Below, piece after piece: positions 26,884-52,454 of a stretch of 64,000 nucleotides of DNA (position 1 is its first letter; every line of letters begins with the position of its first letter). A program made the translations under genes and the position numbers. The notes below the pieces were generated by a model. The model saw only the letters and a list, made by a program, of their open reading frames with translations. It had not been told where the DNA came from and did not search any database. This DNA comes from Candidatus Bathyarchaeia archaeon. GTDB lineage: Bacteria > Patescibacteriota > Microgenomatia > PFEM01 > JAFGMK01. The DNA is taken from assembly GCA_035529595.1 (NCBI GenBank), contig DATKWK010000035.1:317904-381903 (forward strand). Direction: 5' to 3'.

Positions 26884-28254
26884 TTAATAGTGAACTATCT
26901 GTCTTAATAATCGTTTGTGAAACTCGGTGATACGCTCATCGATCAAAATATCATTACGCCATATTCTTTTGGTCAAAATTATCCCCTCTAAACTCCGGCA
27001 CCGGCTCAGGGCGACATAAGTTTGGCCATGGGCAAAGGGCGACCGGCTGAAATCAACACAAACTTTATCCAGAGACATGCCCTGGCTTTTATGAACGGTA
27101 ATCGCCCAGGCTAGCCGGAGCGGATATTGTTTCAGTTTGCCGATGACTTTTTCCACGAGCCCTCCGGTTTCCTGATTATATTCGTATTCGATGTTGTCCC
27201 ACTCGTTGATATCGACCGCCACAATTTTTTTGGTTTCATTAATTTTGACCTCGATTAAATCCTCAGCCAACTCGTCAACCTTACCCAATGTCCCGTTTAC
27301 CCACCGTCTACCCGGATCGTTTTTGACAAATAAAACTCTCGCCCCTTTCTTAAGCTTTAATTCCAAATCAACCGGCAAATTCCGGTTCTCGGTCGGAAAG
27401 TCGCCCTCGATCGCCGCCTGGTAAACAAACAACGGCTTTTTTATCTTGTCGAGTTTTCTTTGATTAATTGCCTCGGCGGTTTTATTGACCGTGCATAAAA
27501 CAATATGGCTCCCGGGCGGTTGTTTGGCCGTTACTCTTTGATTAATTAAACTGAAAGTATCAGCAGAGACGTCACCCGATCTAACCTGGTTAAGGAATTC
27601 AATAAAATGAAGTTCCTTTTGCCGGAAAATTGTTTTTAGCTCAATCACATTAAAATCGTCCAGTTCAAAAGAATTGGCGCTGAAAAAATAGGGAGAATCA
27701 TAAAGCTGGCTATAGGTCGAGATATCCTGATAGGTAATCACCGGCGGCAGCTGGTATAAATCGCCGACGATAACTACTTGAATACCCCCAAACGGCAATC
27801 TTTCGTCCCGGCCATTAAGTCTTAAAAAACGGTCAACACCGTCAAACAGATCCGCCCTGACCATGGAGATCTCATCAATCACCAGGCAGTCCAAATCGGC
27901 AAAGATTCGCTTTCCGGTCCTCCTGATGGCTTTCGGTTCAATTAACCGGGGAGGAAAACCGAAAAATGAGTGGATTGTTTGCCCGCGGATATTTAAAGCG
28001 GCAATTCCGGTTGGTGCCAGGACGACCACTTTCTTTTTGGTCTGGTTACGGAAGTATTGGATCAGCATCGACTTGCCGGTCCCGGCTTTACCAATGATAA
28101 AGAGATTTTGGTTGGTATTCTCCAAGATCTCCAAGCACTTTTTATGTTCCTCCGTTAAGACATAGGCATTGTCTCTTTTAAACTTATTCAGAATCTTTTT
28201 AAAGATTTTGGGTTGGCTCATGTTTGTGTTTTCTTCATGTTTTAAAGTATACAC
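26884..28254 (-). CDS. PIF1/RecD-family SF1 DNA helicase. The start may instead be the internal ATG at 28221-28223.
   Basis: Walker A IIGKAGTGKSMLI, Walker B LVIDEISMV, and helicase motifs through the C-terminus (VHKSQGMSLD). The 28254 start is a GTG that overlaps a repeat element. Confidence 0.85.
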   Translation of the reverse strand: MYTLKHEENTNMSQPKIFKKILNKFKRDNAYVLTEEHKKCLEILENTNQNLFIIGKAGTGKSMLIQYFRNQTKKKVVVLAPTGIAALNIRGQTIHSFFGFPPRLIEPKAIRRTGKRIFADLDCLVIDEISMVRADLFDGVDRFLRLNGRDERLPFGGIQVVIVGDLYQLPPVITYQDISTYSQLYDSPYFFSANSFELDDFNVIELKTIFRQKELHFIEFLNQVRSGDVSADTFSLINQRVTAKQPPGSHIVLCTVNKTAEAINQRKLDKIKKPLFVYQAAIEGDFPTENRNLPVDLELKLKKGARVLFVKNDPGRRWVNGTLGKVDELAEDLIEVKINETKKIVAVDINEWDNIEYEYNQETGGLVEKVIGKLKQYPLRLAWAITVHKSQGMSLDKVCVDFSRSPFAHGQTYVALSRCRSLEGIILTKRIWRNDILIDERITEFHKRLLRQIVHY

Positions 28255-28369
28255 CAGAATTATCGGCTGTAGGCTGGATACTTTTTTAAATCAGGAGAAG
28301 GAAAAAGTTAAAAAAGGTAATTGAAGAAAATTTTACCGAGGTGCAATGGAAAAAGTACCTTGAAGGTGG
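28239..28369. repeat. Composite palindromic element, family A-pal (core GTTTTAAAGTATACACCAGAATTATCGGCTGTAGGCTGGATAC ... right end GTACCTTGAAGGTGG).
   Basis: Shares the AAGTATACACC..TCGGC core and the ACCTTGAAGGTGG hairpin end with copies at 32014, 33645, 37291, 38390 and 42316. Confidence 0.6.
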
Positions 28370-28581
28370 TTGCCTTATTTCAATCGGCAGCCCAAATTAC
28401 TAATGTTTTATGGTCACTTTCATTTACGAGTTTGATAATTTGTTTATCCATGCTCGTAACTGCTAATTTTGGACTTTCCATCTTATTTTTTGCCGGCTAA
28501 ACGTACTTTCTATAAAAAATTATATCAGTGTTAATAACTTTGAAGTAAAAAAGGGGATCTCGGGCTTAGATGATTTTAGAA

Positions 28582-29121
28582 CTAACTTTTTATCTTGCTA
28601 AGTTTTTCTTTGGCGATCTCAAATACTGGCTGGTGGTGAAATTTTACTTGTATGTTGTCATCAAGTTTAAGACTGACCATCGGAAACATCGGCTGATTCA
28701 TTTTACTTTTATCCCAAGCTAAGTGAGGGTATTTTTGGGTAAAAGATTCAAAGTCTTCGTCAATAATAAATTCCGCATGTTCTAATGCCGACGGGCAAAC
28801 TTGTTCTTCTTTTGGAGCGATTAATTCTAAGGCAGTAATAGAGTAGTTTTTATAAAACAGGGGTTGTTTGAGCATGAAAAGTCCAACCCGCCGGCCGCCA
28901 ACTAAGTTTTCGTCTAAAAAGTCTCCTTCTTTTTGTAACTCTTGTTTTAACTGGTCATAGTCCTCATTCGAGGAAGCCTGGTAACCAAGATGGTCCATTT
29001 CATACTGAGAAATATCGATACCAACCTCGTTTAGTTTTTGAAAGAAAAAGTTTAAGAAAGTAGTCTGGTCAAGTTTAATCATAGTGATGATTTTAACACC
29101 GGCGTGCCAAGGGTAAAACAA
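28582..29121 (-). CDS. Hypothetical protein. Its N-terminal third is duplicated at 33146-33408.
   Basis: 179 aa. Nucleotides 28836-29100 are near-identical to 33146-33400. Confidence 0.5.
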   Translation of the reverse strand: MFYPWHAGVKIITMIKLDQTTFLNFFFQKLNEVGIDISQYEMDHLGYQASSNEDYDQLKQELQKEGDFLDENLVGGRRVGLFMLKQPLFYKNYSITALELIAPKEEQVCPSALEHAEFIIDEDFESFTQKYPHLAWDKSKMNQPMFPMVSLKLDDNIQVKFHHQPVFEIAKEKLSKIKS

Positions 29122-29144
29122 CTGGGATACGTATTTTTATCGTT

Positions 29145-30152
29145 TCAGATTTTGGAAACTTCTTTATTAATCTCATCCTCGGAAAACTGGCTCAGACTAA
29201 GACCGAGAAAATGTTTTATTTGACCCGAATCCCAAGGATTTTTGAAGGGCAGGCTGGCGCCATGTTTTTCAAGCAGGGTGACTCCCAAAACATCGCCTGC
29301 CAAAACATCCTTGGAGGCCAGATAAACTTTGGTTTCGGCAATCTCCCCTTTAGAGGGACCGCCTCTGATAAGCGCCCGGGTGCCGTCAATGACCACCAGG
29401 CTTGGTTTGATCGCCAGAGAAATCTCGGCGATCATTTCCTCCCGATTTTTGGAGGCATGAAAGACCATCCGGTCGATCGGATCGATTAGACCAACCAGAT
29501 TTTTAATCGCTAAAGAATGGCCGGTAATCGAATGGGTATGTAAAACCGGAACCGAAATAATATGGTCAACCTCTTGCAGCCTTTTGGGGATTCTGAATCC
29601 GTTGGGCCAAAACTTCGCTTTTTCCGGAGAAACTCTGATCCATTCTTCATCTTCAAAGCCGACAATTTCATCCGCACCCGCTTCTTGGGCAGCGCTATAC
29701 ATTCCGGTCGTTTTCATTGCCGGAATCGTTTTCCAGTTGGGATTTGACCGATCACCAACAATCACATAAGCACCCCGGGCTTTGGCCAGCCGGACCACTT
29801 CCGCCAAAGCCTCAGGGTGGGTGGTTCCAGGCGCCGGATCATCACTGTTAACATTGGGTTTTATCAGAACCTTTTGGCCGGGTAAAATAAAATTCAGGTT
29901 GCCGGTTTTTTGGATGACTTCGTCAATTCCTCTAGCAATGTTGTCGGAATAAACGATTGAAGCAACTACCTGCTCTTCTTTTTGAGGAGTAACCGTAACT
30001 ACGTTTTTATCGCCGACAATATACTCATTCTCGGGTAAATTGAGGGCTTTACCGCCGAGGATTTTTTGATAAACATAGCTAAATCCGGCAAAAATCACTC
30101 CGGCAAAAAGGACAAAGATAATCTTCATTTTTTTAGAAATTTGGATAGCCAT
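29145..30152 (-). CDS. Exported or membrane-anchored hypothetical protein (DUF362-like?).
   Basis: N-terminal signal/TM segment MKIIFVLFAGVIFAGFSYV. 335 aa. No catalytic motif identified confidently. Confidence 0.45.
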   Translation of the reverse strand: MAIQISKKMKIIFVLFAGVIFAGFSYVYQKILGGKALNLPENEYIVGDKNVVTVTPQKEEQVVASIVYSDNIARGIDEVIQKTGNLNFILPGQKVLIKPNVNSDDPAPGTTHPEALAEVVRLAKARGAYVIVGDRSNPNWKTIPAMKTTGMYSAAQEAGADEIVGFEDEEWIRVSPEKAKFWPNGFRIPKRLQEVDHIISVPVLHTHSITGHSLAIKNLVGLIDPIDRMVFHASKNREEMIAEISLAIKPSLVVIDGTRALIRGGPSKGEIAETKVYLASKDVLAGDVLGVTLLEKHGASLPFKNPWDSGQIKHFLGLSLSQFSEDEINKEVSKI

Positions 30153-30174
30153 AGATCGAATATCAGCTTGTTAA

Positions 30175-30852
30175 TTAAAAGAGGATATCTTCCTGAGCAC
30201 CCCTTGGCTTTTGAGTACAAATCCGGTAATAACACCATTTGCAACTATCAGGATTTTCAGGCGGGGGAGGGCCGTTTAATAACTTTGAAACTTCGGAAAT
30301 GAAGGCATAAAACCGATCCATATCTTCGGCAATTTCAAACCACTGGGGTTTGGCTTTAAAAATCACGTCTTCAGCCGGAAATGAAATTTCTTCGGGATTA
30401 ATCGCAATGATTCCCATTTTACTGACCTTTTTGGGTTCTCCAAAATCAGGATTTTCTAATGCGAACTTGTAGGCGTGAAGTTGGGCAAAGAATCTCTGAA
30501 TCTTGTCTTCCGTCGGGTCAGTAATTTTAAAATCAATTACGGAATAAGTTCCGTCTTCAAGGCGGGAAATAAAATCAAACCTGCCGCCGATATAACAATC
30601 ATTGGCCGGCGGAATGGGTTTTGATTTTAGGAAACCTTCTTTTACCTCGACCTTTCCGGCCGGAAGAAGCGAATTAATTTCTCTTAAATCCATGCCGATA
30701 ATTGCATTTTGCAAAAGTGAATTCATTTTTGTAAAAACACCGGGCATGCCGATTGAAGGCAATTCTTTAATTAAGCCTTTTGCTTTCTGGTAATAGCAAT
30801 GCTTGCAATCCTCGTATAAATACTTGAAATCCGAAGGAGATAATTTGTACAT
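30175..30852 (-). CDS. Cas4/RecB-like PD-(D/E)xK nuclease-family protein with 4 Cys (putative Fe-S); orphan.
   Basis: N-terminal C-x2-C... (DCKHCYY). Central D...VIDFKITD (D/ExK). C-terminal CKWCYYRIC. This is the Cas4/DUF83 arrangement of Cys around a PD-(D/E)xK core. No CRISPR array or cas1/cas2 nearby. Confidence 0.55.
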   Translation of the reverse strand: MYKLSPSDFKYLYEDCKHCYYQKAKGLIKELPSIGMPGVFTKMNSLLQNAIIGMDLREINSLLPAGKVEVKEGFLKSKPIPPANDCYIGGRFDFISRLEDGTYSVIDFKITDPTEDKIQRFFAQLHAYKFALENPDFGEPKKVSKMGIIAINPEEISFPAEDVIFKAKPQWFEIAEDMDRFYAFISEVSKLLNGPPPPENPDSCKWCYYRICTQKPRGAQEDILF

Positions 30853-30863
30853 ATCTTTATTCT

Positions 30864-30915
30864 ACACCATTTAAGGTGTCTCAGATATCATACTGGGAGC
30901 CAAAGTGTATAATAA
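30864..30915. repeat. A-pal family hairpin end (ACACCATTTAAGGTGTCTCAGATA...).
   Basis: Perfect-arm hairpin ACACC-ATTTA-AGGTGT immediately upstream of the 30852 start codon. Confidence 0.5.
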
Positions 30916-31073
30916 AAAAATGAAGAAAAATTGGCTGCTGGGTTTTTTGGGATTTCTTGGTCTTTTGGGTATTCCGGGAATTTTCAGCCGAGATTGGAAA
31001 GATTTGCTTTGGCTCGTTTGGTTTATTTGGTTTGTCTATTTTATTCCACAAAAAAAGGTATAAAACTCCCAAA

Positions 31074-31220
31074 TTACACGTTAAGGTGTCTTAGATAAAA
31101 AAAGCTTTCTGGTAAAAATCCGTTTAACTTCCTGGGGTGTTTACAACCCTGAGCGAATTATAATCCTGAGTGAAATCGAAGGAGTCGAGGTGTCAAGGAT
31201 AAAACACCTTTAAGGTGTAT
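31074..31220. repeat. A-pal family element with a B-pal-like interior (..CCTGAGCG..ATCCTGAGTG..CGAAGGAG..).
   Basis: Left end ACACGTTAAGGTGTCTTAGATA. Right end GAGGTGTCAAGGATAAAACACCTTTAAGGTGTAT. The interior carries CCTGAGCG/ATCCTGAG/GAAGGAG motifs reminiscent of the 14677 and 38484 palindromes. Confidence 0.5.
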
Positions 31221-31237
31221 GTTGTCAATTGCAGAGA

Positions 31238-31954
31238 CTAGTCAAACAATTCGGCCACTTTTAGCTCAGTAAAATTATGGATCGTCTTAACCACTCCGGG
31301 CAGGCTACCTAATACTTTCAGGCGCTCGTCATTTCCAATAACAATGATATTCCTAACACCAGCGGCAAACGCCGACTGGATTCCCGACTTAGCGTCTTCA
31401 ATTACCAGACATTCTACTGGCTTTAAATTGATTATTTTAGCAGCCAACAAATACGGGTCAGGCGCTGGTTTCCCTTTATGCCTGCCATCGTTATAAAGTA
31501 TTTTCTGCTTGTTAAACCACTGATCAAGACGCAATTTTTTAAAAGAAAAACTAAAAATTCCTACTGCTGAAGAGGTGGCAATCGTCCGGGGAATATTTCT
31601 GTCTTGAACTTGGTTTAAGAATTCTTCCAATCCGATATTGAGATGAAACAACGGACTGGTTCTACATAAATGTTCTGTTATTTGATCTTTCTTTTTGGCT
31701 AACTTTTCGATTTCTTCAGTACTCATTTTGTTACCGGACAACCATTTGATTGTCTCCTTAGAAGGTACTCCTCGGATTCGATGAACCATTTCTCCATCAG
31801 TAACCATTTGTCCTCTTAACTCCCGGGAAATTTGACTCCACGCTTCTTTTTGAATCGGATAATCATCAACCAGCACTCCATTGAAATCAAAAATTATTCC
31901 GATTGGTCTTGGCGTATTTAAGCTTTGTTGATTAATAATCTTTTTCTGGGCCAT
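31238..31954 (-). CDS. HAD-superfamily hydrolase (phosphatase/beta-PGM-like).
   Basis: Motif I IGIIFDFNGVLVDD. Downstream Ser/Thr and Lys motifs. C-terminal IEDAKSGIQSA (motif IV). Confidence 0.75.
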   Translation of the reverse strand: MAQKKIINQQSLNTPRPIGIIFDFNGVLVDDYPIQKEAWSQISRELRGQMVTDGEMVHRIRGVPSKETIKWLSGNKMSTEEIEKLAKKKDQITEHLCRTSPLFHLNIGLEEFLNQVQDRNIPRTIATSSAVGIFSFSFKKLRLDQWFNKQKILYNDGRHKGKPAPDPYLLAAKIINLKPVECLVIEDAKSGIQSAFAAGVRNIIVIGNDERLKVLGSLPGVVKTIHNFTELKVAELFD

Positions 31955-32013
31955 CTTTGAGAAAATAATTTATTGACCACACCTCAAATTATTTCTTCTT
32001 TTTATCTGTTTTT

Positions 32014-32108
32014 CTTATTAATTACACCTTCAAGATGCCTTAGATATGATTCTTCTTGTTTTAAGTATACACCCAAATTATCGGTTGCAAGTTTTAGGGA
32101 AGACACCT
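32014..32108. repeat. A-pal family element, complete copy.
   Basis: ACACCTTCAAGATGCCTTAGATATGATTCTTCTTGTTTTAAGTATACACCCAAATTATCGGTTGCAAGTTTTAGGGAAGACACCTTGAGGGTGTAG. Confidence 0.6.
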
Positions 32109-32178
32109 TGAGGGTGTAGTAGGCTAGCTCCGTAAGAAATGCCCTGCGAGACAGACAACGTTTAGCCTTTTTTAAAAG

Positions 32179-32508
32179 TTATTGAGCCAGCTTTGAAAGA
32201 AACATATTCACAAGCGACAAAACGATAGCTGCAATCAAGGCCGTTCTAAATCCTGCAACACTAAAACCGGGCACAATTTTGCTCATTATCATTAAGAGGA
32301 GTGCGTTAATAACAAAAGTGAACAACCCTAATGTTAAAATATTTATCGGTAGCGTCAATAGTATTACTACGGGTTTAACTAACAAAGTTAACAATCCCCA
32401 TACGACTGAAATAACAAGCAAGGCTTGCCAACCACTAACTATAAAACCTGGCACTAAGTATGCGGTCACGTAGAATGCAAGGGCACTGACCAATAATTGT
32501 ATAAACAT
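32179..32508 (-). CDS. Phage-holin family 4-like small membrane protein (YvlD/PF04020-like).
   Basis: 109 aa with 4 TM segments and the pattern ..YLVPGF.V.GW..LL.....GLL...VKP...LLTLP.N..TLGLFTFVINALLL.....VPGF.V.GF..ALIAAIVLSLVN. Confidence 0.55.
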   Translation of the reverse strand: MFIQLLVSALAFYVTAYLVPGFIVSGWQALLVISVVWGLLTLLVKPVVILLTLPINILTLGLFTFVINALLLMIMSKIVPGFSVAGFRTALIAAIVLSLVNMFLSKLAQ

Positions 32509-32811
32509 ATTATTATTCTAAACCACGAACCCTGTACTGTAAATCACTTACTGAATCATCAATTCTACGCCGATAAACCCAGTCTTCCCCTAGTTAACAA
32601 TAGGTAGTATGCTCGCTTAATCCCTGACCTTTATCAAATGCAAAAGGGGTGATTGTTCCAGTCGGTTTATTAATAATTTCTTTGCTGACAACGGAACCCT
32701 CTTGATAATTTATTGTTTGATTAATATTCTTAGAATTGGTCATAAAATAAGATTTTATCACAGAAAAATATCAGCCTAATCAATTAGCTGTATAATTAAT
32801 TAGGTAAAATT

Positions 32812-33030
32812 ATGAAAATATCGGTAATAGTCCATCCGAATTCAAAAAATCCAAGAATAGAAAAAGACTTAATGAGCGTATTACATATTTATGTAAAGGC
32901 ACCGCCATTGGAAGGAAAGGCTAACAAGGCAGTCATTGAAGCATTGGCAATATTTTTTAAAACCAAAAAGGGAAAGATAATCTTAAAACGGGGAGAGAAA
33001 TCGAGAAATAAAGTATTTGAAATAGGCTGA
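32812..33030 (+). CDS. DUF167/YggU-family protein.
   Basis: 72 aa. VKAPPLEGKANKAVIEALAIFFKTKKGKIILKRGEKSRNKVFEI matches the DUF167 core (P.eGkAN.alI..La..). Confidence 0.7.
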   Translation: MKISVIVHPNSKNPRIEKDLMSVLHIYVKAPPLEGKANKAVIEALAIFFKTKKGKIILKRGEKSRNKVFEIG

Positions 33031-33145
33031 AATTTACCGATATTGATTGCTCCCAGGTGGGGCTCAGACTTCAAAAAAATTAGGTTTATAAAATAAAACA
33101 ATGTCAATCCTTATGGGATTAGATTTTTAGATAGTTGTTGAAGCT

Positions 33146-33408
33146 TAATTCCAAGGCAGTAATAGAGTAGTTTTTATAAAACAGGGGTTGTTTGAGTCTG
33201 AAAAGTCTCCTTCTTTTTGTAACTCTTGTTTTAACTGGTCATAGTCCTCATTCGAGGAAGCCTGGTAACCAAGATGATCCATTTCATACTGAGAAATATC
33301 GATACCAACCTCGTTTAGTTTTTGGAAGAAAGAGTTTAAGAAAGTAGTCTGGTCAAGTTTAATCATAGTGATGATTTTAACACCGGCGGCGCTCCAAAGG
33401 AAAGACAC
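33146..33408 (-). pseudogene. Truncated duplicate of the 5' third of gene 28582-29121.
   Basis: About 250 nt near-identical to 28836-29100, with a 45-nt internal deletion. The ORF ends after 87 aa with unrelated residues. Confidence 0.6.
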
Positions 33409-33644
33409 CTTGAAGGTGGTTAACTACCTATTAAAAATAAGGGTAATCTCTACCAAATACCTTTTACTTCAAGATAGATAATTGAAACAATCATCATCAC
33501 AATCATAAAAAGAAAAATATATATAAATCTGGCCTTTTTATTGCGCGGTAGTTTTAAGTAACCCTCTTTAGTAATCAAAGGCGAAAAAACCTTGTGCAAA
33601 ATTTTAATTAAAAAATTTTCCATGCCGGCAATCCTTTTATGATT

Positions 33645-33722
33645 ACACTTTTAAAGTGTCTCAGATTAGCCACTTCTTGTTAAGTATACACCAAAGTTCT
33701 CGGCCGTAAGCTTGATGTTTTC
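33645..33722. repeat. A-pal family element (left hairpin plus core).
   Basis: ACACTTTTAAAGTGTCTCAGATTAGCCACTTCTTGTTAAGTATACACCAAAGTTCTCGGCCGTAAGCTTGATGTTTTC. A right-end-type hairpin (GACACCTTGAAGGTGG) lies at 33398-33424. Confidence 0.55.
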
Positions 33723-34347
33723 AAAAATATCAGCATTAAAGTATCTATCGAGATTTTAAACAGAGTTCTGATTAAATGATGCAAAGGCACTAAGTTCTGA
33801 TACAAAAATTGATAATAAGCCGTTTCTCTGGTGTCGGGATTGGGAACAACCGCTTCCGCAGTTAACTCAGAATACCGATAAAACTATAAAATTCAAACTT
33901 CCGTTTCCATAAAAATCTACCAGCTGATATAATTTGTTGTAAGATTCAAGGTTATCTTTTCTGAAAGTAGAAAATTCCTTAACCTTGGAATTGAAGAAAG
34001 CACTGACACTAAAATTATTCTAATCGGTAAGAAAGTCTGACTGCATATCTTAATCGATTATGACCGAAGATAGATCAACCCAAGAAACCAAATCAAAACC
34101 CCCGACACCTGAGGATATAAAAGAAGCCTACCATTAGCACCAACTATTTAAAGATGGCTGGCTAACTGCCCATGAATTATCAGAACTAAAACCAGGAGAT
34201 AAACCCGGTTCAACTGGCGAAGTTTTTAAGGTCGAGACCAAAAGTCTTCGGGCAATAAAAGCAATTCTCGACAGAGACTTACCCGATGACGAATTTCGAG
34301 CCGGACTGGAAGAAATAAGATCGTTACTACCCCGGCCCTTTGAGAAA

Positions 34348-37190: not shown

Positions 37191-37290
37191 GATTTATATT
37201 ATATTTTAAAAATAATTTTTGAGCAATATTGAATATTTTTTATCTGGCTTTATCAGTAATTTTCTTCATATTCAATAAATCTATAGAATT

Positions 37291-37384
37291 ACACCTTCAG
37301 GGTGTCTCAGATATGGCACTTCTTGTTAAGTATACACCAAAATTACCGGCCGTAAGCTTGAGGGAAGACACTTTGAAGGTACAG
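37291..37384. repeat. A-pal family element, complete copy.
   Basis: ACACCTTCAGGGTGTCTCAGATATGGCACTTCTTGTTAAGTATACACCAAAATTACCGGCCGTAAGCTTGAGGGAAGACACTTTGAAGGT. Confidence 0.6.
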
Positions 37385-37400
37385 TTAGCCGGTTTTATTT

Positions 37401-38366: not shown

Positions 38367-38389
38367 GCTCTGGTAATTTATATATTTGG

Positions 38390-38663
38390 TACACCTTCAA
38401 AATGTCTCAGATTAGACACTTCTTTTATAAGTATACACCAAAATTCTCGGCCGAAAGCTTGATATTTTCACAAATTTTGCATCCTTGTCATCCTAATCCC
38501 GACTTTAGGTCGTGGAGAAGGATCCAGCGAAGCCAAGTCTGACTTGGCGAAGCGCTTACGCTAGATTCCTTGGAATGACAATAGAGTCTTGAAATAGGTT
38601 CTGATTTTTTTAAATCAGTAGAAAAAGTACCAAGGTGTCAAGGGAAAGACACCTTGAAGGTGT
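38390..38663. repeat. A-pal family element carrying a nested B-pal palindrome.
   Basis: Left ACACCTTCAAAATGTCTCAGATTAGACACTTCTTTTATAAGTATACACCAAAATTCTCGGCCGAAAGCTTGA. Right ...AAAAAGTACCAAGGTGTCAAGGGAAAGACACCTTGAAGGTGTT. Interior 38484-38580 is the second B-pal palindrome. Confidence 0.6.
38484..38580. repeat. Imperfect palindromic element, family B-pal, copy 2 (TTGTCATCC...GGAATGACAA), nested in an A-pal element.
   Basis: Terminal arms ttgtcatcc / ggaatgacaa are exact reverse complements. The interior gaaggatccagcgaagccaagtc-tgac-ttggcgaagcgcttacgctagattcc is palindromic. Its right arm matches copy 1 (14677-14768) in reverse orientation. Confidence 0.6.
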
Positions 38664-42146: not shown

Positions 42147-42315
42147 ACTTCCCCTCTGACTTCCATCTTATTGGATATTGCGAATATTACTAAGTGATAC
42201 TTTTACCTTATTCTTGATGATTTTTTTCCCGGATATTGCCTTTTTAGCTCTTTGATTACTTTATCAACATATATATTAAAAAAATAGGACTTTAAAAAAA
42301 TATTCTATTTGCTGT

Positions 42316-42403
42316 TTAAATCAAAAACAGTGAAAAGGCAAAAAGGGCAATTGGAGAAAAAAAATTCACCGAGGTTCAATGGGAAAAGTACCTTGAAGGT
42401 GGT
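42316..42403. repeat. A-pal family right-end element (TTTAAATCAA..GAAAAGGCAA..TTCACCGAGGTTCAATGGGAAAAGTACCTTGAAGGTGG).
   Basis: About 75% identical over about 80 nt to 28290-28369. Directly abuts the stop of the 42413 gene. Confidence 0.55.
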
Positions 42404-42412
42404 TACCTTTAT

Positions 42413-45259
42413 TCATAGGTTGTATTTGTCTTTTCTTTTTTCAAATGCCGCCTCACCGCCATCAAGAATGTCGCAAGCGTGTTCTCTAATTCCACAAGAC
42501 AGCAAAACAATTTCTTGAGTTTTATCCCTTTCTTTCGTGTACTCTAATGAGCCACTTAGATAATCAAACTTCTGGTTATCTTTATTTTTTCGGTCGTCGC
42601 CGTGCTGATTAGCAACCATGACTTGCTCCGAGTCAGCACCAACGACTAAATTTGCATTATGGCTAACCATAATAATTTGTCGCCTTTTCTTTTGCTCTTT
42701 CAAATAGGGAACAATCGAAAAATACATTGACCGGCTATCAAGGTCGTCCTCTGGCTGGTCAATCAAAAGAGGCCATGTGTCCGATTCTTTGGTTAACAGA
42801 AGGGTAAGCGCAAATAATGCCTGCTTTCCTTCTGTCATCGAACTACTACTGAAACCACCAATTGTGTCGTTTTCCATAGTTGAGTTGAACCGAATATCTT
42901 CAACGAAGGTTAAAACTTCCTTAGCGCAAAGTTGCGAATCTTCATCAAACAACACCTTTTGTTTTTTGGCAAACACGGCATCAAGAAAATTGTGAGGGTC
43001 ACTTCTTATTAAGTCGATTTTTAATAAATCTTTCTCTCTGTCAATAAAATCACTGCTCTCTTTTCTATTAAAGCGTGCGGATAGCTCTTCAAATTTTTGG
43101 GGATGGAATTGAATTTCAACCCCGAAACGGATTTTGCTATCTGACTGCTCAAGTGCAGCAAATTTCGTCTTTAGGGTATCTAGGGCTGAAGTTCTGTCGC
43201 TAACACTTTTTTTAATTAGTTCAGACAAATCTCTTAACTCGGTGTTTTTATCGGCGATTTCCTGTGTCAACTTTTCTATTGCCGATTTTCTTTCCTTCTG
43301 CTTGTCTAACTTCTCGATCAAATCCTGCAATTGCTCGTTTTTCTTACACTTTTCGATTAAATCCTTATTTGAATCGTATAGGGTTTTAATTTCAGACTGA
43401 ACTCGTGACTTCTCCTTATCCAAATCAGATTTATAGGCAAGAATTCTTTTTTGTACCAGCCCGCTAACGGTACTTGACCATTGAGTAACATCTTGGGTAA
43501 TCTTCTTCTGTAAATTTAACGGCAACGACTCGATTGCGGGCATAAAAGAAACTTTCGTAGTAATAGAGATAACCTTATCTTTCCTGTCGCTATCGTCTCG
43601 GTAAATAAATCCTTCAAGTTCGCCAAGCTCTTCATCAATCTTTTTTAATCTTGCTTCCTTGTTATGGATATCCTGACTTAGTTCCTTGTATTTTTTGACG
43701 TCTTCGTCGCTAAGGGAAGCAATTTTCTTAAGCTCATCGATCTTTTTTTCAAAATCCGCAATAACCTTTTCAATAGCTGTTTTGTCACCTTGCTCTTTAA
43801 TCTCTAGTTCTAGAGATCTAACTTCCTCTTTCGTGACAAACCACTTTGTAACTGATTCGGTAATGCTTTTGTTGTAAGTGTCTCTAATATCAATCTGGAG
43901 TCGCTCATAAACTTGTTTAATTTCCGGATAATTCTCAAACAACACAGGTTTAATCATGGCTGTAATATCATCCGGACGACTGCTTAATTCAGCCAGATAA
44001 TTTTGTGGAATATAAACAACTTTTCCGTGTTGCGTTAGTCCGTTACCCCACTCAACGGCAACCTCAAAGTTCACATCTTCCCAACTAACTTTTGCCGCGG
44101 GACCTTCGGGCTTGATCCCCTTTGCGCTTTCAGGGTCAACTGAACAAGCGAGATAGGCCAAAAGCGCTGATTTACCAGACGATCTACTTCCAATAATTGA
44201 GCTAAGGTTATCGTTAAACAGAATTTCATTCGGAAAATCAGAAGTGTTTTTAAAAATTATTTTACGAATAACACGGTCGGGCAACTTTCCACCCGGAGGA
44301 ATCGAGCCCATAAATACTCTTTCGCCGCTAATTGGCTCATAGACAATTTGTTTTAAGCCTTCATAAGTCAAATCGGCCTTTATCCAAGTAATCTCTTTCT
44401 CTACCTCACCTTTAGCATTTACAACTTTTTTGCCTAGGAAGTTGTCAACATCCTCGAAAGAATGCGCATCGCTACCAGACAATACCGGTTTTGGTGCTGT
44501 TTCTTCACCGTTATCTAGGCGTTCTTTATCCGAGAAGTGATCAACATTAGTTGAGCTTCCAAAAAACCCGTGACTAAACTTGTCTATCTCATCAGTAATT
44601 ACCGCCTTTCTCTGTTTGCCTCTAACTTTTCCAGCCACTTTTTCAGTATCCGTTCTAATGCCATCATTGTTTGCGGCGGCAATAATAAGCATATAATCAG
44701 TAAGATCAATCTTACTTCCAAAGGTTGCCTTAATTGCATCCTCTATGAACTGCCTTGTTGTTGTAGCTTTCTCAAAATCTTTGGTTGACGAAAGTTCAGA
44801 AGCCTTTATGTTTTTGCCTGAAAGGTTGTTGGTTTCATTTGTTTTGAGACTACTTAAAAACTCCCCAAGTCTGCTTTTGATATTCGGCATATCAGAATTA
44901 ACAATAAGGTGCAGATTTACTTCCTCCCCAGCTTTATTAACTACATCATTAGTACATACTTCAATATTTGGGAAAAACACTTTTGAGGAGTCGGGGTATT
45001 TATTTTTAAATTTATCTATAAAGGTAAAATAATTATCAACCGAAAAATAATCAGTGATACCAATTGCTACGACATCAGATTCCTCAATCTTCTTACAAAA
45101 TATATCCCAGGGATCACCGTCCTTTAATTTATATTGGTCATTCTTTTTGGTTCCAGGTGTATGAACTTGCAAATCCCATTTTCTCCATAGAGAACCCCGC
45201 GGATCGTTGATTCGTGTGTCTCGATCGTTCTGGTTATTGTTGCCACTACGTTTAGTCAT
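42413..45259 (-). CDS. PHP-domain phosphoesterase fused to an SMC/OLD-like ABC ATPase with a long coiled-coil insert; Ppl-like candidate antiviral defence protein.
   Basis: N-terminal PHP motifs WDLQVHTPGT (DLHVHT-like), GITDYFS, NIEVCTN, NLHLIV. Walker A GSRSSGKSALLAYLA at about aa 370. About 250 aa of E/K-rich coiled coil. C-terminal signature-like SMTEGKQALFAL, Walker B LLIDQPEDDLD, H-loop MVSHNANLV. This architecture (PHP plus ABC ATPase) matches the single-gene 'Ppl' defence system described among recently catalogued anti-phage genes. Confidence 0.65.
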   Translation of the reverse strand: MTKRSGNNNQNDRDTRINDPRGSLWRKWDLQVHTPGTKKNDQYKLKDGDPWDIFCKKIEESDVVAIGITDYFSVDNYFTFIDKFKNKYPDSSKVFFPNIEVCTNDVVNKAGEEVNLHLIVNSDMPNIKSRLGEFLSSLKTNETNNLSGKNIKASELSSTKDFEKATTTRQFIEDAIKATFGSKIDLTDYMLIIAAANNDGIRTDTEKVAGKVRGKQRKAVITDEIDKFSHGFFGSSTNVDHFSDKERLDNGEETAPKPVLSGSDAHSFEDVDNFLGKKVVNAKGEVEKEITWIKADLTYEGLKQIVYEPISGERVFMGSIPPGGKLPDRVIRKIIFKNTSDFPNEILFNDNLSSIIGSRSSGKSALLAYLACSVDPESAKGIKPEGPAAKVSWEDVNFEVAVEWGNGLTQHGKVVYIPQNYLAELSSRPDDITAMIKPVLFENYPEIKQVYERLQIDIRDTYNKSITESVTKWFVTKEEVRSLELEIKEQGDKTAIEKVIADFEKKIDELKKIASLSDEDVKKYKELSQDIHNKEARLKKIDEELGELEGFIYRDDSDRKDKVISITTKVSFMPAIESLPLNLQKKITQDVTQWSSTVSGLVQKRILAYKSDLDKEKSRVQSEIKTLYDSNKDLIEKCKKNEQLQDLIEKLDKQKERKSAIEKLTQEIADKNTELRDLSELIKKSVSDRTSALDTLKTKFAALEQSDSKIRFGVEIQFHPQKFEELSARFNRKESSDFIDREKDLLKIDLIRSDPHNFLDAVFAKKQKVLFDEDSQLCAKEVLTFVEDIRFNSTMENDTIGGFSSSSMTEGKQALFALTLLLTKESDTWPLLIDQPEDDLDSRSMYFSIVPYLKEQKKRRQIIMVSHNANLVVGADSEQVMVANQHGDDRKNKDNQKFDYLSGSLEYTKERDKTQEIVLLSCGIREHACDILDGGEAAFEKRKDKYNL

Positions 45260-45355
45260 TGTTTTTCTCCACCACTTTTATTTCGTCATCTGTAAGTCCG
45301 CAGAGCTTATAAACCATTTGATCAATTTATTTTTCGTATTCGCGGACTTTCGTCC

Positions 45356-47209
45356 TTATATTTCCGGTAAATGACTTTTAAGATATTTTTCTGTATCTTT
45401 ATCAATAAAATAAACATATACTCCCTTATGGGCCCGAGAAAGAAGTACGCGATAAACGTTTTTTAAGTGATTCGTGAGATTTGGATTATTACGTTTTACT
45501 TGCGTATCATGAGAATTTTCCGGAATCGCTCGCCACTTACTTTCAACCGGATCAAAAACCAAATCATTTCCAAAAATAACTGCAATATAGTCAAATTCAA
45601 ACCCTTGAGCTGTATAAACAGTTCCCACCTGTTCCATCCCCGAATCATCGGTAGCCCATTTCCAAAACTGGTCTTTTTTTTCCCATGGCATTTCGAAGTT
45701 TCCTATTTTTACGTCGTTAACTAAAGAATTATCTGGGATTGGTTTACTCCACGACCAACAAAATCCTGCAGTAATCCTCGCGGAATTAGGTTTCTCATGA
45801 TTTCTCTTCCGAATTTCTTCCATCATCTCTTGCGGGCTTTTAAAAATTTTAAATTCCATTTTAGGATCATATTCCGAAAATTCACTATCACCAATTCTTA
45901 AAACAAAATCTAACCATTGAAGGTAAGCATCGGAACCTGAACATCTAAATTGTGTTTTAAGCTCAAATTCAGAGATATCAGATTTTTTAATTCCCAAACG
46001 TTGCACTGCTTTTTTTATCATCTCGACGCTTCCTATTTCGTTCGGTCTCACGATCTGATTTTCGTCAATAAAGAAAATGCTTAATTTCGCTACATTTAAC
46101 AATTCGTCTATTTGGGGCAAATCTGTTCTTTGAACTTTCGGTGTATATCTATCTATGCTTGATTCTCTTATACGATGTGCCTCGTCGCAAATAAGCACAT
46201 CAAAAGAACCTGACTTCGTTGCAATAAAGCTGTTGAAAAATTTGAACAGGTTTTTTGCCCGAACACCAACTATATTTCTTAATGTATTTGTAAACGCGGA
46301 CGATCCCGTGGCATGTACGACCTTTCTCCCTTGCCTCAAAAGCTCCCCCATAACTTCTAATGCTATTACAGACTTCCCTGTGCCGGGACCACCCTTTACT
46401 ATCACTACTGATTTTTGCTTTGTTTTTGCGAACTGCTTAACTTTGTGCCTTATTGCATTGTAGGCAACAATTTGTTCATCAATTAAATTAAAAATTTGCC
46501 GTTTATTTATCATCTCCGATGTATGATCAAGTAGTTTTCTAGACGGTTCGATTGGGCTTCTTGCAAATCGTTCGTAAATCAATTTACCCTTACCACCCTG
46601 AAGGCGCTTTTTTAGATATCTTCCCAATTCAATAGCGTCTTCTTTTGCAAACAATGGAAAGGTTTTGATTAATTTAGAAAATTCCGAAGAAAAAAGTATG
46701 GCATCTTTATTCTTTGAATAATTATGTAGATATACAGATGCGCTTAATTCTGGCGAGTTCTTTTCTTGAAAAATCCTAAGAAAATCCTTTAGGCCGAAAT
46801 AGTATCCTTGCACTTGTAGCACGGGGTGTGGTTGTTCCCTCTTAAATTGCCCATAATCGACGACTACATTACCTTCACTTTCGGCGTCTTGCACGTGTTG
46901 ATTTGACCATTGTTTGAGTTCCATCATTACAACATTTTCTTCTCCATCCACGTCATGCCCAAAAAGCAAAACATCAATTCTTCGCGACGAAAAAGGAAGT
47001 TCGTATTCGACAATTATATGGTTGTCTTTAAGGCCGGCGTAATGAAAACTATTATTTAGGATTGCAAGCGAAATTGCCCATGATCTATATTCACGATCAG
47101 CTGGATCCTTTTTGTAGTAAGCTCGATATTTTTCGGCCGCACGATCCGCAATGCAGTTTTGCATTACATCTTCGTTAAATCGCTCGATTGTGCCTTCATA
47201 AAGAATCAT
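45356..47209 (-). CDS. DUF2075-like protein: N-terminal PD-(D/E)xK-type nuclease fused to an SF1/RecD-like P-loop helicase-like ATPase.
   Basis: N-terminal IDVLLFGHD...VVMMELKQW (D...ExK). Walker A VIVKGGPGTGKSVIALEVM. Walker B VLICDEAHRI. C-terminal TVYTAQGFEFDYIAVIFGNDLVFD, characteristic of DUF2075/UvrD_C_2-type domains. Confidence 0.7.
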   Translation of the reverse strand: MILYEGTIERFNEDVMQNCIADRAAEKYRAYYKKDPADREYRSWAISLAILNNSFHYAGLKDNHIIVEYELPFSSRRIDVLLFGHDVDGEENVVMMELKQWSNQHVQDAESEGNVVVDYGQFKREQPHPVLQVQGYYFGLKDFLRIFQEKNSPELSASVYLHNYSKNKDAILFSSEFSKLIKTFPLFAKEDAIELGRYLKKRLQGGKGKLIYERFARSPIEPSRKLLDHTSEMINKRQIFNLIDEQIVAYNAIRHKVKQFAKTKQKSVVIVKGGPGTGKSVIALEVMGELLRQGRKVVHATGSSAFTNTLRNIVGVRAKNLFKFFNSFIATKSGSFDVLICDEAHRIRESSIDRYTPKVQRTDLPQIDELLNVAKLSIFFIDENQIVRPNEIGSVEMIKKAVQRLGIKKSDISEFELKTQFRCSGSDAYLQWLDFVLRIGDSEFSEYDPKMEFKIFKSPQEMMEEIRKRNHEKPNSARITAGFCWSWSKPIPDNSLVNDVKIGNFEMPWEKKDQFWKWATDDSGMEQVGTVYTAQGFEFDYIAVIFGNDLVFDPVESKWRAIPENSHDTQVKRNNPNLTNHLKNVYRVLLSRAHKGVYVYFIDKDTEKYLKSHLPEI

Positions 47210-47323
47210 AATTGAAGTTTATTGTTTTAGTATGATTACCTTTTTGCTTTACCTAATGATTATAAATTTATTTCCGATCTCACTCACCTCTAAATTTAAT
47301 AATTTCTTTAATCAGACATGAAC

Positions 47324-48016
47324 TTATATTAAGTTTTGTTCCTTTAAACTGTAAAATTTGTTTTTAGTAACGATAATGTGATCGAGAAGTTCAATACCAA
47401 AAATTTTAGCTGCTTCTTCCAAGCGTCTCGTTAGCGCAACGTCTTCCGGTGAGGCTTCAGGATTTTCCGATGGATGGTTATGGGCAATTATTATTTGTGC
47501 AGCAAAGGACTGAATCGCTTCTTTAAAAACTTCCCGGGGGTGTACAATACTTGAATTAAGCGAACCTACTGAAATATTACTGATTTTTATTAAACAATTA
47601 TGTGCATCAAGAGACAGCACAACAAAATGCTCTTTCTTTTCCCGTCCGATAGATTTTTGCAAAAAGTTAGCTACTGCCCTTGATGAATTAAGTGTAATTT
47701 TCTCTGGTAGGTGCTCTCTTGCGAGGCGCTCAGCTACTGCCTGAAAAAGTTTTATACCAAATGCATTAGATGGTCCAATACCTTTAATCTTTTGTAAATC
47801 TTCCAGCGAAGCATCAAGTACTCCTCGTAAACCACTAAGCTCTTTAATAGCTTGTTTTGCCATTTGCTTACAATCTTTCCGAGGGGTACCCAACGTTAAA
47901 AGTAATTCCACAATTTCATAATCAAGAAAACCGTCAAATCCACTTTTCAAGAAACGTATTCTTAATCTTTTCCTGTGGCCTTCCATTTTTTGTGGATCCT
48001 TAAGGGAAATTGTCAT
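47324..48016 (-). CDS. radC: RadC-like JAB/MPN-domain protein.
   Basis: N-terminal HhH region (IKGIGPSNAF). JAMM motif IIIAHNHPSENPEASPEDVALTRRL. Confidence 0.85.
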   Translation of the reverse strand: MTISLKDPQKMEGHRKRLRIRFLKSGFDGFLDYEIVELLLTLGTPRKDCKQMAKQAIKELSGLRGVLDASLEDLQKIKGIGPSNAFGIKLFQAVAERLAREHLPEKITLNSSRAVANFLQKSIGREKKEHFVVLSLDAHNCLIKISNISVGSLNSSIVHPREVFKEAIQSFAAQIIIAHNHPSENPEASPEDVALTRRLEEAAKIFGIELLDHIIVTKNKFYSLKEQNLI

Positions 48017-48022
48017 TATTAC

Positions 48023-48370
48023 CTACAATTTGTCGTATTTAGCATGACGTCCCTTCGCTTTCTCGATAGGATATTTTTCTTCGTTTTTGTCCATCTTTTT
48101 GCTTAAAGCATCGACAATATCTATCTCCAAATCATGGCTCATCAATAATATCCAATAAAGAACATCGGCCAACTCTTCTCCGATATGTTCCTTGTGAGCT
48201 GAAATGTATTCCTCCAATTCTTTTCCGTTTTTCCATTGAAAATGCTCAACAACCTCTGAGGCTTCCAATGTAAGGGAAAGGGCTACATCTTTTGGGTTAT
48301 GAAATTGTTTCCAATCACGAGCGTCTCGGAAGGCAATTATTCGTTTTATTAATTTGTCAAGATTTTTCAT
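48023..48370 (-). CDS. MazG-like nucleoside triphosphate pyrophosphohydrolase (small all-alpha NTP-PPase).
   Basis: 115 aa. EASEVVEHF...EELADVLYWILLMS is the MazG/HisE EExxD/E metal-binding helix pair. Confidence 0.7.
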   Translation of the reverse strand: MKNLDKLIKRIIAFRDARDWKQFHNPKDVALSLTLEASEVVEHFQWKNGKELEEYISAHKEHIGEELADVLYWILLMSHDLEIDIVDALSKKMDKNEEKYPIEKAKGRHAKYDKL

Positions 48371-48443
48371 AATACTTTGTCAGAAAATCAACATCAATCC
48401 TAAAAGCCTTGACGATCCCTGCCTATTGGCAGAAGAAGGGGAT

Positions 48444-48484
48444 AGTTTAAATTTGGCCACTTTAAGCTGATTCTACCACTTTTT
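48444..48484. repeat. 41-bp direct repeat, copy 1 (AGTTTAAATTTGGCCACTTTAAGCTGATTCTACCACTTT).
   Basis: About 38/41 identical to 49441-49479. The two copies bracket the PIG-L gene. Confidence 0.6.
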
Positions 48485-48554
48485 ACCTAGCAGGTCATAC
48501 TGGTTGGCTAATATGACAGATCATCATACGATAACCACTCCGGCAATTGTTATT

Positions 48555-49277
48555 TCACAGAAAATATTCCCTGGAAAGCATCTTGTTCTTGAGAAAGAAT
48601 AAAAAAGACTGCCAGTGAAGCATGTCAAACCTGAACTGCGACTGATGGGACTTTAACGCCAGCAGTTTTTTTATACTGGCGGCAAGGCCCAGTTTCATAA
48701 TAAATTGAGGCTTACTAGGCTTGACTACCTTTTCGGCCAACTTTATGGCTTGTCGAGGTAAAATATAATTAATAGAAACTGTCGCGTATAGAGTTTTGAC
48801 TGGCGGGTCTGAAACCTCAGAGACAAACTTGCTCAGAGAGATATGGTCAGGGTGTCCGTAAATTCCGTTTGGCTCAAGGGTAATTATGTGCGAGGGTCGG
48901 TATAGGGATATTTCTTTTCTTAAACATGACAGTATTTCTTCTCCCCGATTCTTCAAATTTCCATCGCCGAAATCAAATATTTTCAGATCTTTTATCCCCA
49001 ATATCTTCAAAGCATTTTTCAGCTCGATCGATCTTACTTTACCAAGATCCGCAGACTTATCCAGTCTATAGCGAAGAGAACTTCTTTCACCCCGGCTGAA
49101 AGTCAAAACCCGGGTGGGTATTTTACCTAAAAATAGCTTATATAAAGTACCGCCAATAAAAACTGCTTCGTCATCCGGGTGAGGCATACAAACCAAAATC
49201 CGGCTATTTAAAGAAATACCTAATGAGTAAACATCCTTGACAATCTGCATAAAAAAATTTGTCACAGACACCTTCAA
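48555..49277 (-). CDS. PIG-L/LmbE-family N-acetylglucosaminyl deacetylase.
   Basis: N-terminal VCMPHPDDEAVFIGGT (HPDDE motif). Downstream HPDH pair (GIYGHPDHISL). Confidence 0.75.
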   Translation of the reverse strand: MKVSVTNFFMQIVKDVYSLGISLNSRILVCMPHPDDEAVFIGGTLYKLFLGKIPTRVLTFSRGERSSLRYRLDKSADLGKVRSIELKNALKILGIKDLKIFDFGDGNLKNRGEEILSCLRKEISLYRPSHIITLEPNGIYGHPDHISLSKFVSEVSDPPVKTLYATVSINYILPRQAIKLAEKVVKPSKPQFIMKLGLAASIKKLLALKSHQSQFRFDMLHWQSFLFFLKNKMLSREYFL

Positions 49278-49282
49278 AGTGC
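49266..49282. repeat. A-pal family hairpin (GACACCTTCAAAGTGCC) overlapping the PIG-L start.
   Basis: Same hairpin class as the other A-pal ends. Lies at the 5' end of the gene. Confidence 0.45.
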
Positions 49283-49440
49283 CTTAGGTTTCCTGACGTT
49301 TTTTAAAGTTTTAAACTAGGACTAACAATTTTTAGAATATCTTTCTTTTAATTTTCATAAGCAAAAAGATTTTTGGTAAAAATCACAAGAACCAGGGAAA
49401 GCAGGAAAACCAAGCCGGTTTTTTTGACAGAAAGAGAGAG

Positions 49441-49479
49441 AGTTTTAATTTGGCCACTTTAAGCTGATTTTACCACTTT
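49441..49479. repeat. 41-bp direct repeat, copy 2 (AGTTTTAATTTGGCCACTTTAAGCTGATTTTACCACTTT).
   Basis: See copy 1 at 48444-48484. Confidence 0.6.
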
Positions 49480-49551
49480 GTGGCTTAAAGGGGTATTAAT
49501 TAGGTTTAAAAAATCTTTTTTCTCTCGGACGCTAGGTCTCCTACGCTAAAA

Positions 49552-49863
49552 CTACTGCTTATCCTTCAGGTGATAGGCTTGGCTTAACCACCGAATAAGT
49601 TCTTCATTAATTTCTTCTATTGCCTTTAGATCGATACAGTTCTTAAAGACTTTTGCAGACATGGGCACACAGATTTTTAACCTTGGACTATCTAATTTTT
49701 GATCCAGGGCAAATCTGATTTCCAGCTTATCTTTCTTTGGCAAAGCCGCTAAGAAATCATAGTTACCAAACAAATGGATACAACAGGGAATAGAAATTTT
49801 GTGACAGCTATGAGGCTGTTTTGCTTTTTCAAAAACTCTTCCGCACTTGGAACAGGTCCACAT
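49552..49863 (-). CDS. Hypothetical protein with an N-terminal Cys/His zinc-ribbon-like motif.
   Basis: MWTCSKCGRVFEKAKQPHSCH. Confidence 0.4.
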   Translation of the reverse strand: MWTCSKCGRVFEKAKQPHSCHKISIPCCIHLFGNYDFLAALPKKDKLEIRFALDQKLDSPRLKICVPMSAKVFKNCIDLKAIEEINEELIRWLSQAYHLKDKQ

Positions 49864-49989
49864 ACAGCTATTTTACTTCAAATAATAAAATATTTTTTAT
49901 AGTGCATCTTGAGGGCGCATTACATTAATTAGGTTGAGAAAATCCTTTTCGTGTCACTTACTGGGACAATTCTAGAACCAATTTCTTCA

Positions 49990-50445: not shown

Positions 50446-50569
50446 AAGGTAATTATATCAAAGGTTTGAAAAAATGAATGAGCAGGGTACCTAGATGGAA
50501 TGATTTTAGAATCTGCTCTACTTGACGGACAACGCTCAAATCTATTTTAATTTTTTTACGATACCACCT

Positions 50570-51301: not shown

Positions 51302-51387
51302 GGCTATATTCTACCAGAAAAGATATTACCCAACAGTCTCTTAATTTTTTGGTGGGGAAAAAACTAAAAGAAATTCTTTTGCTAACT

Positions 51388-52452: not shown

Positions 52453-52454
52453 TT

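Follow-up and report, generated by a model that had tools for sequence, protein, structure and literature searches.

The locus studied here raises a simple question: why does the beginning of one gene occur twice, in the same orientation, on either side of a block of small and unrelated genes? We addressed it in a 64,000-nt stretch of the metagenomic contig DATKWK010000035.1 (hereafter the window, whose positions are used for all coordinates), in which the 5' part of a gene of the yecM family, located near 29 kb, recurs near 33 kb. The original prediction read this arrangement as the footprint of recombination between cassettes bounded by repeats. Our results suggest that recombination is the right general category but do not support repeat-bounded cassettes: a motif related to the palindromes of the region (called A-pal) is found at one edge of the duplication, the 5' one, but not at the other, and no recombinase is annotated between 19 and 53 kb. 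We favor, with a probability of about 0.6, a duplication of yecM followed by deletional decay, that is, an ordinary scar rather than a mobile cassette system.

A direct repeat of the 5' end of yecM

Repeat finding and pairwise alignment confirmed that the repeat is real. The two copies, A (284 nt) and B (244 nt), are in direct orientation on the minus strand. Of 244 aligned bases, 239 are identical; besides the five substitutions, the alignment contains a single gap of 40 nt (BLAST; E = 1.4e-94). The duplicated same-strand fragment that had been noticed around a cluster of about 4.3 kb is therefore borne out, and its high identity holds in the alignment. The positions first given for it were a few bases off, and the internal deletion reported as 45 nt measures 40 nt. 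The repeat and the two reading frames that contain it are the following:

28821-29104, minus strand: repeat copy A, leader and 5' end of the intact yecM-family gene (alignment to 33145-33388)
33145-33388, minus strand: repeat copy B, putative 5' relic of a second yecM copy (alignment; tblastn)
28872-28912, minus strand: 40-nt stretch of copy A that is missing in copy B (alignment; placement ambiguous by 1-2 nt)
28582-29082, minus strand: intact YecM/VOC-family gene, 166 amino acids (aa) from its ATG (Pfam PF06185; PDB 1K4N; NCBI HUW22196.1)
33145-33408, minus strand: pseudo-open reading frame (pseudo-ORF), 87 aa from a GTG or 73 aa from the ATG at 33366, annotated as a "VOC family protein" (HUW22203.1, 73 aa)

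Each copy consists of a leader of 22 nt upstream of the ATG (29082 in A and 33366 in B) and of the initial 262 nt of the coding region. From start to start, the copies are 4284 nt apart in the 5' part of the repeat and 4324 nt apart in its 3' part, with 4040 nt (29105-33144) of DNA between them. The 40-nt gap is bordered by the direct repeat GACTTTT (gene strand) and, 40 not being divisible by three, it shifts the reading frame of copy B. The longest run of identical bases between the copies is 76 nt.

One intact gene and one probable relic

Copy A belongs to an intact gene, whose reading frame remains open up to a TTG at 29121 (179 aa). Its product is a member of the YecM family, with a match to PF06185 well above the gathering threshold (E = 1.4e-25; 90.5 bits for a cut-off of 25; profile positions 8-142 of 180). 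It also matches the structure of E. coli YecM (1K4N; E = 4e-9) and shares with it a conserved C-terminal EH.E segment, which is missing from copy B. The truncated 87-aa pseudo-ORF of the original prediction does exist; read from its ATG, it encodes 59 native YecM residues followed by 14 out-of-frame residues and a stop codon. Copy B reaches only 31.5 bits against PF06185 and covers only profile positions 8-59 of 180; its homology to the intact gene stops at codon ~87 of 166, and the conserved C-terminal half is gone.

An intact source at high nucleotide identity in the same genome and two disabling lesions, a frameshift and a truncation, are the properties of a pseudogene derived from a duplication. 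We found no 3' remnant of yecM next to copy B or elsewhere in the window, and tblastn returned only two yecM loci. A search for other paralogous fragments around the block found none and turned up only shared copies of the 36-nt D1 motif described below, including 28285-28382 against 42315-42415. Judged by its sequence, copy B is a predicted 5' relic, dead and non-functional, of a second chromosomal copy of the yecM family. Its ORF is called as a gene in the JGI, ENA and NCBI annotations. A 33-aa ORF downstream of yecM (about 28390-28491) was considered as another relic and was dropped, as it found support in neither Pfam nor PDB.

The same structure in independent assemblies

The window is 100% identical to the JGI contig Ga0307378_10000010. 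The exact products of both copies were found in the same gene order in three JGI contigs (up to 847 kb) and in one ENA/NCBI contig of 394,090 nt, where they correspond to HUW22196.1 (A) and HUW22203.1 (B). In addition, the independent Logan assembly of SRR8554643 contains three contigs that are 100% identical to the window. The first stops at 33359, the second covers 33182 to 29075 and the third begins at 28858. Every one of these contig ends lies exactly 30 nt beyond the last base that distinguishes the copies, which fits a de Bruijn graph with k=31 that holds both of them, and the contigs reproduce all four unique flanks at 100%. The 76-nt identical run is shorter than what we assume to be a typical read length, so that single reads could tell the copies apart. 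These results answer the question of assembly correctness that had been raised for this locus: since independent contigs carry both copies, misassembly is effectively excluded.

We observed that the 394,090-nt contig is labeled "Candidatus Bathyarchaeia archaeon" at NCBI. All the named close homologues of its YecM and of the neighboring DUF362 protein that bear a phylum label are Patescibacteria, i.e., bacteria of the candidate phyla radiation (CPR), and the named homologues of the nearby PIF1 protein include Saccharimonadales and Levybacteria. The metagenome-assembled genome was probably mis-binned or mislabeled.

Boundaries of the duplication

At the 5' boundary, the copies are 98% identical up to position -22 and about 65% identical beyond it, and this position falls inside a motif of the D1 family in both copies. 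The two D1 motifs are in the same register upstream of A and B, bar an indel of 3 nt. The one upstream of copy B keeps its palindrome, whereas the one upstream of copy A (29097-29132) does not fold, which suggests that the intact yecM is probably co-transcribed with the DUF362 gene located upstream. At the 3' boundary (33145|33144), the homology ends abruptly, within coding sequence and without a palindrome; 114 nt of unique DNA follow, and then the convergent yggU gene. At the 5' boundary, the repeated motif may have taken part in the rearrangement; the 3' boundary is an ordinary illegitimate breakpoint.

It had been proposed that both copies end next to A-pal hairpins. This is correct for copy B, which lies 18 nt from the palindrome 33406-33418. 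For copy A, the hairpin that had been named (28357-28369) is not adjacent: it is found 213 nt past the stop codon and 452 nt from the repeat, and the position of copy A that is equivalent to the hairpin of copy B holds only the degenerate, non-folding motif. The D1 motifs around the two copies, and the best-defined module of the second type described below, are as follows:

33384-33419, minus strand: D1 motif upstream of copy B with the palindrome 33406-33418, 32 nt after the stop codon of a 57-aa gene
29097-29132, minus strand: degenerate D1 relic upstream of copy A, without a hairpin (64% to the reference; z = -0.03)
28334-28369, minus strand: D1 motif past the 3' end of the intact yecM and shortly before the PIF1 promoter module (28240-28291)
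32020-32120, minus strand: predicted terminator and promoter module between the holin-like gene and the HAD1 gene, with palindrome P1 at 32104-32116, a conserved GGTGTATACTT in the -10 region and palindrome P2 at 32025-32037

Palindromes and promoter modules as probable gene-boundary signals

We then considered these repeated motifs across the window. The palindrome core, CACCTTNAAGGTG, presents 15 matches with at most two mismatches for 2.2 expected, and 12 of the 15 are intergenic, between 28 and 52 kb. This distribution shows that A-pal is not specific to the cluster. Within the block, it was thought to separate every gene: palindromes are indeed present at some boundaries (30866, 31081, 31205, 32025 and 32104), but there is none between the DUF362 and PD-(D/E)XK nuclease genes (30153-30174) and none in 32509-33144.

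The D1 family is a 36-nt motif with the gene-strand consensus ACACCTTCAAGGTGTCTTTCCCTTGACACCTTGGTA, found in 10 copies between 25 and 52 kb (25029-52450). Most of these copies follow the stop codon of a minus-strand gene at a distance of 6-63 nt. The best ones, 6-32 nt after stops, were picked up by a terminator scan and combine a T-rich tract with a hairpin of 8-10 bp (-14 to -15.5 kcal/mol; z = -2.4 to -4.4); the other copies are degenerate (z about 0). D1 carries three ACACCTT half-sites in alternating orientation, which makes two mutually exclusive hairpins possible; examples are found at 38628-38663, 52415-52450 and 31183-31218, the first of which lies in a divergent intergenic region without an upstream minus-strand gene. 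The closest relative (L003, see below) likewise has a D1-type motif after a stop codon, and such motifs are essentially absent from the more distant Patescibacteria loci that we examined. Palindromes seen upstream of yecM in two distant relatives (L001 and L006) were set aside, as they lie inside a coding region and probably occur by chance. A scan of the window against Rfam found no known RNA family.

The second type of element is a predicted promoter module of about 100 nt with the core CAAGCTTACGGCCG-N-TTTTGGTGTATACTT...GAGACACCTTGAAGGTGTAAT, preceded in some copies by a second palindrome (P1). Four of its copies (32020-32120, 33642-33728, 37287-37385 and 38387-38475) share 81-88% identity, and a partial fifth copy was found at 28240-28291. 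Each of these modules lies upstream of a minus-strand gene, for a total of five unrelated genes within 10 kb, and their palindromes are located 23-102 nt before the ATG. We observed that GGTGTATACTT is invariant in the module, that the palindrome falls in the predicted 5' untranslated region (5' UTR) and that the conservation of the module is well above the needs of promoter function alone. The module could be a shared operator (i.e., define a regulon) or a spreading intergenic element.

The fixed positions of these elements relative to stop codons and start codons correspond to the behavior of transcription signals. The D1 motifs and the promoter modules most likely represent generic gene-boundary signals specific to this lineage, predicted to act in transcription termination and initiation. 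Two further repeats were observed. About 100 nt downstream of the intact yecM (28285-28382) are 79-87% identical to a segment downstream of a 948-aa SMC_N/AAA_21 gene (42315-42415), and this pair seems to represent another kind of module repeated in terminator regions. Finally, a 42-nt intergenic repeat, GATAGTTTAAATTTGGCCACTTTAAGCTGATTCTACCACTTT, flanks a PIG-L deacetylase gene (48441-48482 and 49438-49479; 93% identity), with a weaker copy at 53250-53291.

Genes between and around the copies

The genes located between the two copies, and the gene upstream of copy B, are the following:

29145-30152, minus strand: DUF362 protein with an N-terminal membrane anchor (Pfam PF04015, E=1e-44)
30175-30852, minus strand: stand-alone PD-(D/E)XK nuclease, weakly Cas4-like (Pfam PF12705, E=1.2e-8; PADLOC Cas4, E~1e-5)
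30905-31063, plus strand: small membrane ORF, DUF3796-like, on the opposite strand (Pfam)
31238-31954, minus strand: HAD-family hydrolase, HAD1 (Pfam PF13419, E=3e-22)
32179-32508, minus strand: membrane protein of the Phage_holin_4_2 family (Pfam PF04020, E=5.8e-30)
32594-32743, minus strand: 49-aa ORF equivalent to the N-terminal end (~42 residues) of a cupin_2 barrel protein (PDB 3rns_A, E=1.4e-9; 1yhf_A)
32812-33030, plus strand: YggU/DUF167 gene, convergent with copy B (Pfam PF02594, E=1.6e-19)
33450-33623, minus strand: membrane ORF of 57 aa that lies upstream of copy B and has a promoter module of its own at 33642-33728 (ORF list; module alignment)

The DUF362 gene is co-oriented with the intact yecM and lies 23 nt upstream of its ORF. 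The 49-aa ORF, which is called as a gene in public annotations, aligns to residues 18-57 of 1yhf_A (115 aa) and probably represents a second truncated gene relic within the block. The orientation of the block is mixed, with two genes on the opposite strand, and several of its genes possess their own promoter module.

Among the Pfam annotations between 19 and 53 kb, we found no integrase (including IntI), transposase or other recombinase and no replication or mobilization gene. Neither the DNA of the region nor the two proteins that we tested (the nuclease and YecM) matched phage or viral collections. The arrangement does not correspond to an insertion sequence or a composite transposon either, as it lacks a transposase and its repeats are direct and 244-284 nt long, far over the size of a target-site duplication.

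A run of defense-like and accessory genes extends over 42413-53288. It includes the 948-aa SMC_N/AAA_21 ATPase (Ppl/AriA-like in PADLOC), a helicase similar to Schlafen group 3 (Nhi/AbiO-like), RadC, a MazG-like protein and two radical SAM proteins. On the other side of the repeats, a PhdYeFM/ParE toxin-antitoxin pair was found near 23.5-24.0 kb. Together, the defense-like run and the toxin-antitoxin pair suggest that the yecM repeats sit in a variable, island-like region.

Relatives, polarity and age

Only one close relative was found, the 1.3-kb contig Ga0315291_10413761 (L003), whose yecM is 88% identical to that of the window and was used as the outgroup for polarity. Of the five substitutions, three are derived in copy A (two synonymous and one non-synonymous) and two in copy B, in addition to its deletion. 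The divergence between A and B is 2.0%, compared with 11.3% between A and L003, which indicates that changes have accumulated in both copies since they diverged. As judged from these values, the duplication would not be very recent; assuming comparable rates, it would nevertheless postdate the divergence from L003.

L003 has a full-length yecM and, directly after it, the HAD1 orthologue beginning with its 5' UTR (window 32004-31927), and the breakpoint of synteny with the window lies at HAD1, within ~16 nt of palindrome P2. The order yecM-HAD1 resembles the B side of the block, where HAD1 is found further downstream, and this weakly suggests that B marks the older locus. The HAD gene of L003 lacks ~360 nt internally (window 31927 is joined to 31564-31507), which suggests that deletions are common in this lineage. 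At 1143-1278 of L003, the HAD1 orthologue abuts the stop codon of yecM, without a promoter or terminator module between the two.

More distant relatives did not share this organization. The yecM homologues with 61-63% identity (and one with 38%), from GTDB genomes and JGI metagenomes, had no neighbors in common with the window. The neighbors of PIF1 homologues at 70-79% were entirely different, and DUF362 homologues at 75-78% were followed by a convergent glycosyltransferase gene and not by yecM. No empty-site allele was found among six contigs with the 57-aa gene or five with PIF1, a small sample that makes this a weak negative. A search of the literature found nothing relevant to this feature.

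Origin of the duplication

Our favored explanation is a duplication of yecM within the chromosome followed by deletional decay of one copy. The duplicated segment would have started 22 nt upstream of the ATG, with an upstream breakpoint inside the 36-nt D1 motif, which probably supplied the short homology. Copy A would have stayed intact, probably as part of a transcript that includes the DUF362 gene. Copy B would have lost everything 3' of codon ~87, its stump being joined to the DNA downstream of yggU, and slippage between the GACTTTT repeats would have removed 40 nt and caused the frameshift. The 4.0 kb between the copies would then be ordinary chromosomal DNA of a variable and decay-prone region; the cupin stump and the ~360-nt loss in the HAD gene of L003 suggest that deletional decay is a local theme. 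Several points weigh against this scenario. It takes no fewer than three events, a duplication and two deletions, whereas a Campbell-type integration yields the arrangement g1-X-g1g2 in one. The arguments on polarity and age are weak, as they are based on five substitutions only. In L003, yecM is directly upstream of HAD1, which fits neither copy's present neighborhood simply. Finally, the ancestral arrangement cannot be reconstructed from relatives that present 62-79% amino acid identity and no synteny.

The Campbell-type alternative supposes that a 4.3-kb circle (yggU ... DUF362 and yecM from -22 to +262) entered a chromosomal yecM, located between the 57-aa gene and PIF1, by a single homologous crossover, and that the 40-nt deletion came later. 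The layout of the locus (a 5' fragment, an insert and the full gene, all direct) is the exact product of one crossover with a 5'-truncated homology arm, and direct repeats of the homologous segment do flank the insert. The 2% divergence between A and B could then separate donor and recipient strains, the adjacency of DUF362 and yecM is specific to this lineage, since the relatives lack it, and the Logan contig L008, which contains the inner junctions alone, would also fit a circle. However, the block carries no replication, mobilization or recombinase gene and has no viral, phage or extrachromosomal counterpart; the empty site was not seen among the contigs listed above; the closest relative presents yecM followed by HAD1 and not by PIF1; a prior illegitimate excision is required to make the circle; and the D1 motifs in the same register upstream of both copies suggest an intragenomic event. 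We therefore consider a Campbell-type origin possible but rather unlikely. A model in which A-pal recombination sites delimit the genes as cassettes, and in which the duplicate arose by integron-like or repeat-mediated capture, is doubtful. The position of the 5' boundary inside a D1/A-pal motif in both copies, the L003 breakpoint next to P2 and the over-representation of the motif would be expected under such a model, but the 3' boundary lies in coding sequence without a palindrome, several gene junctions of the block lack palindromes, those that exist occupy the fixed spots of transcription signals relative to stops and ATGs, and the genes have mixed orientations and their own promoters and come without an integrase. 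Slightly more doubtful still is the idea that the D1/A-pal motifs and promoter modules are integrase-independent recombination hot spots that shuffle gene blocks, with the yecM repeats making the 4.3-kb block excisable or amplifiable. If it were true, a RecA-mediated crossover between the repeats would release a circle of block and repeat (X+R) and restore a single yecM.

Two other explanations concern copy B itself. The 73/87-aa ORF might be functional as a short paralogue, or its transcript might be regulatory, e.g., antisense to the convergent yggU. Its ATG and a TGTTAAAAT element resembling a -10 box are kept within the repeat, and three public annotations call it as a gene. YecM has a VOC fold built of several modules, and the alignment to 1K4N indicates that an ORF with 59 native and 14 out-of-frame residues is too short to form it; moreover, no homologue of the short form was found other than itself. 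A function for copy B is thus very unlikely. Least credible is an assembly artifact, in which the second copy would be a misjoined or collapsed repeat. The sequence does come from a metagenome assembly and was judged on assembled contigs, but the same structure is present in at least four long contigs from JGI and ENA/NCBI, the Logan assembly breaks precisely at the k=31 branch points expected with both copies, and the copies differ by five sites and a 40-nt indel, with no identical run above 76 nt.

Significance and comparison with known systems

As a probable case of yecM duplication followed by decay, this locus is real but ordinary, with nothing surprising to a specialist. Its main value lies in annotation, where HUW22203.1, the 73/87-aa "VOC family protein", ought to be marked as a pseudogene and the 49-aa ORF at 32594-32743 as a truncated cupin. 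The locus also documents duplication and deletional decay in the ultra-small genome of a CPR bacterium. Its direct repeats might allow the five intervening genes to be lost or amplified, although nothing shows that they act in this way. The promoter and terminator modules may help to define the transcription signals of an uncultured lineage.

The locus shares features with several known systems. As in integron cassette arrays, short imperfect palindromes are found between several small unrelated genes. Unlike in these arrays, there is no IntI, the palindromes are cores of 13-15 nt within terminator and promoter modules rather than attC sites and are missing from some junctions, the genes have their own promoters and mixed orientations, and the 3' boundary of the duplication is not at a palindrome. 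As in the products of Campbell-type integration, direct repeats of the 5' fragment of a gene bracket a block and one full copy is kept; the locus departs from such products in that its block lacks replicon and mobility functions and that an empty site was not seen. The D1 motif resembles intrinsic terminators, repetitive extragenic palindromic (REP) sequences and bacterial interspersed mosaic elements (BIME) by its hairpin of 8-10 bp with a T-rich tract, its position 6-63 nt after stop codons and its many intergenic copies. It differs from them by a weak U-tract, many degenerate copies and a palindrome that is also found in the 5' UTR of the promoter modules. We know of no RNA or protein partner of D1.

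Copy A, through its matches to PF06185 and 1K4N, is similar to E. coli YecM, a predicted metalloenzyme of the VOC superfamily, while copy B retains only the first third of that protein. Deletional bias and pseudogene relics have been described for Rickettsia, Mycobacterium leprae and insect symbionts. The yecM repeats resemble such relics of duplicated genes in reduced or decaying bacterial genomes: a fragment coexists with an intact copy, it is truncated, it carries a short slippage deletion and truncated genes are found nearby. The differences are that the host is a Patescibacteria (CPR) genome recovered from a metagenome and that the relic is still annotated as a "VOC family protein".

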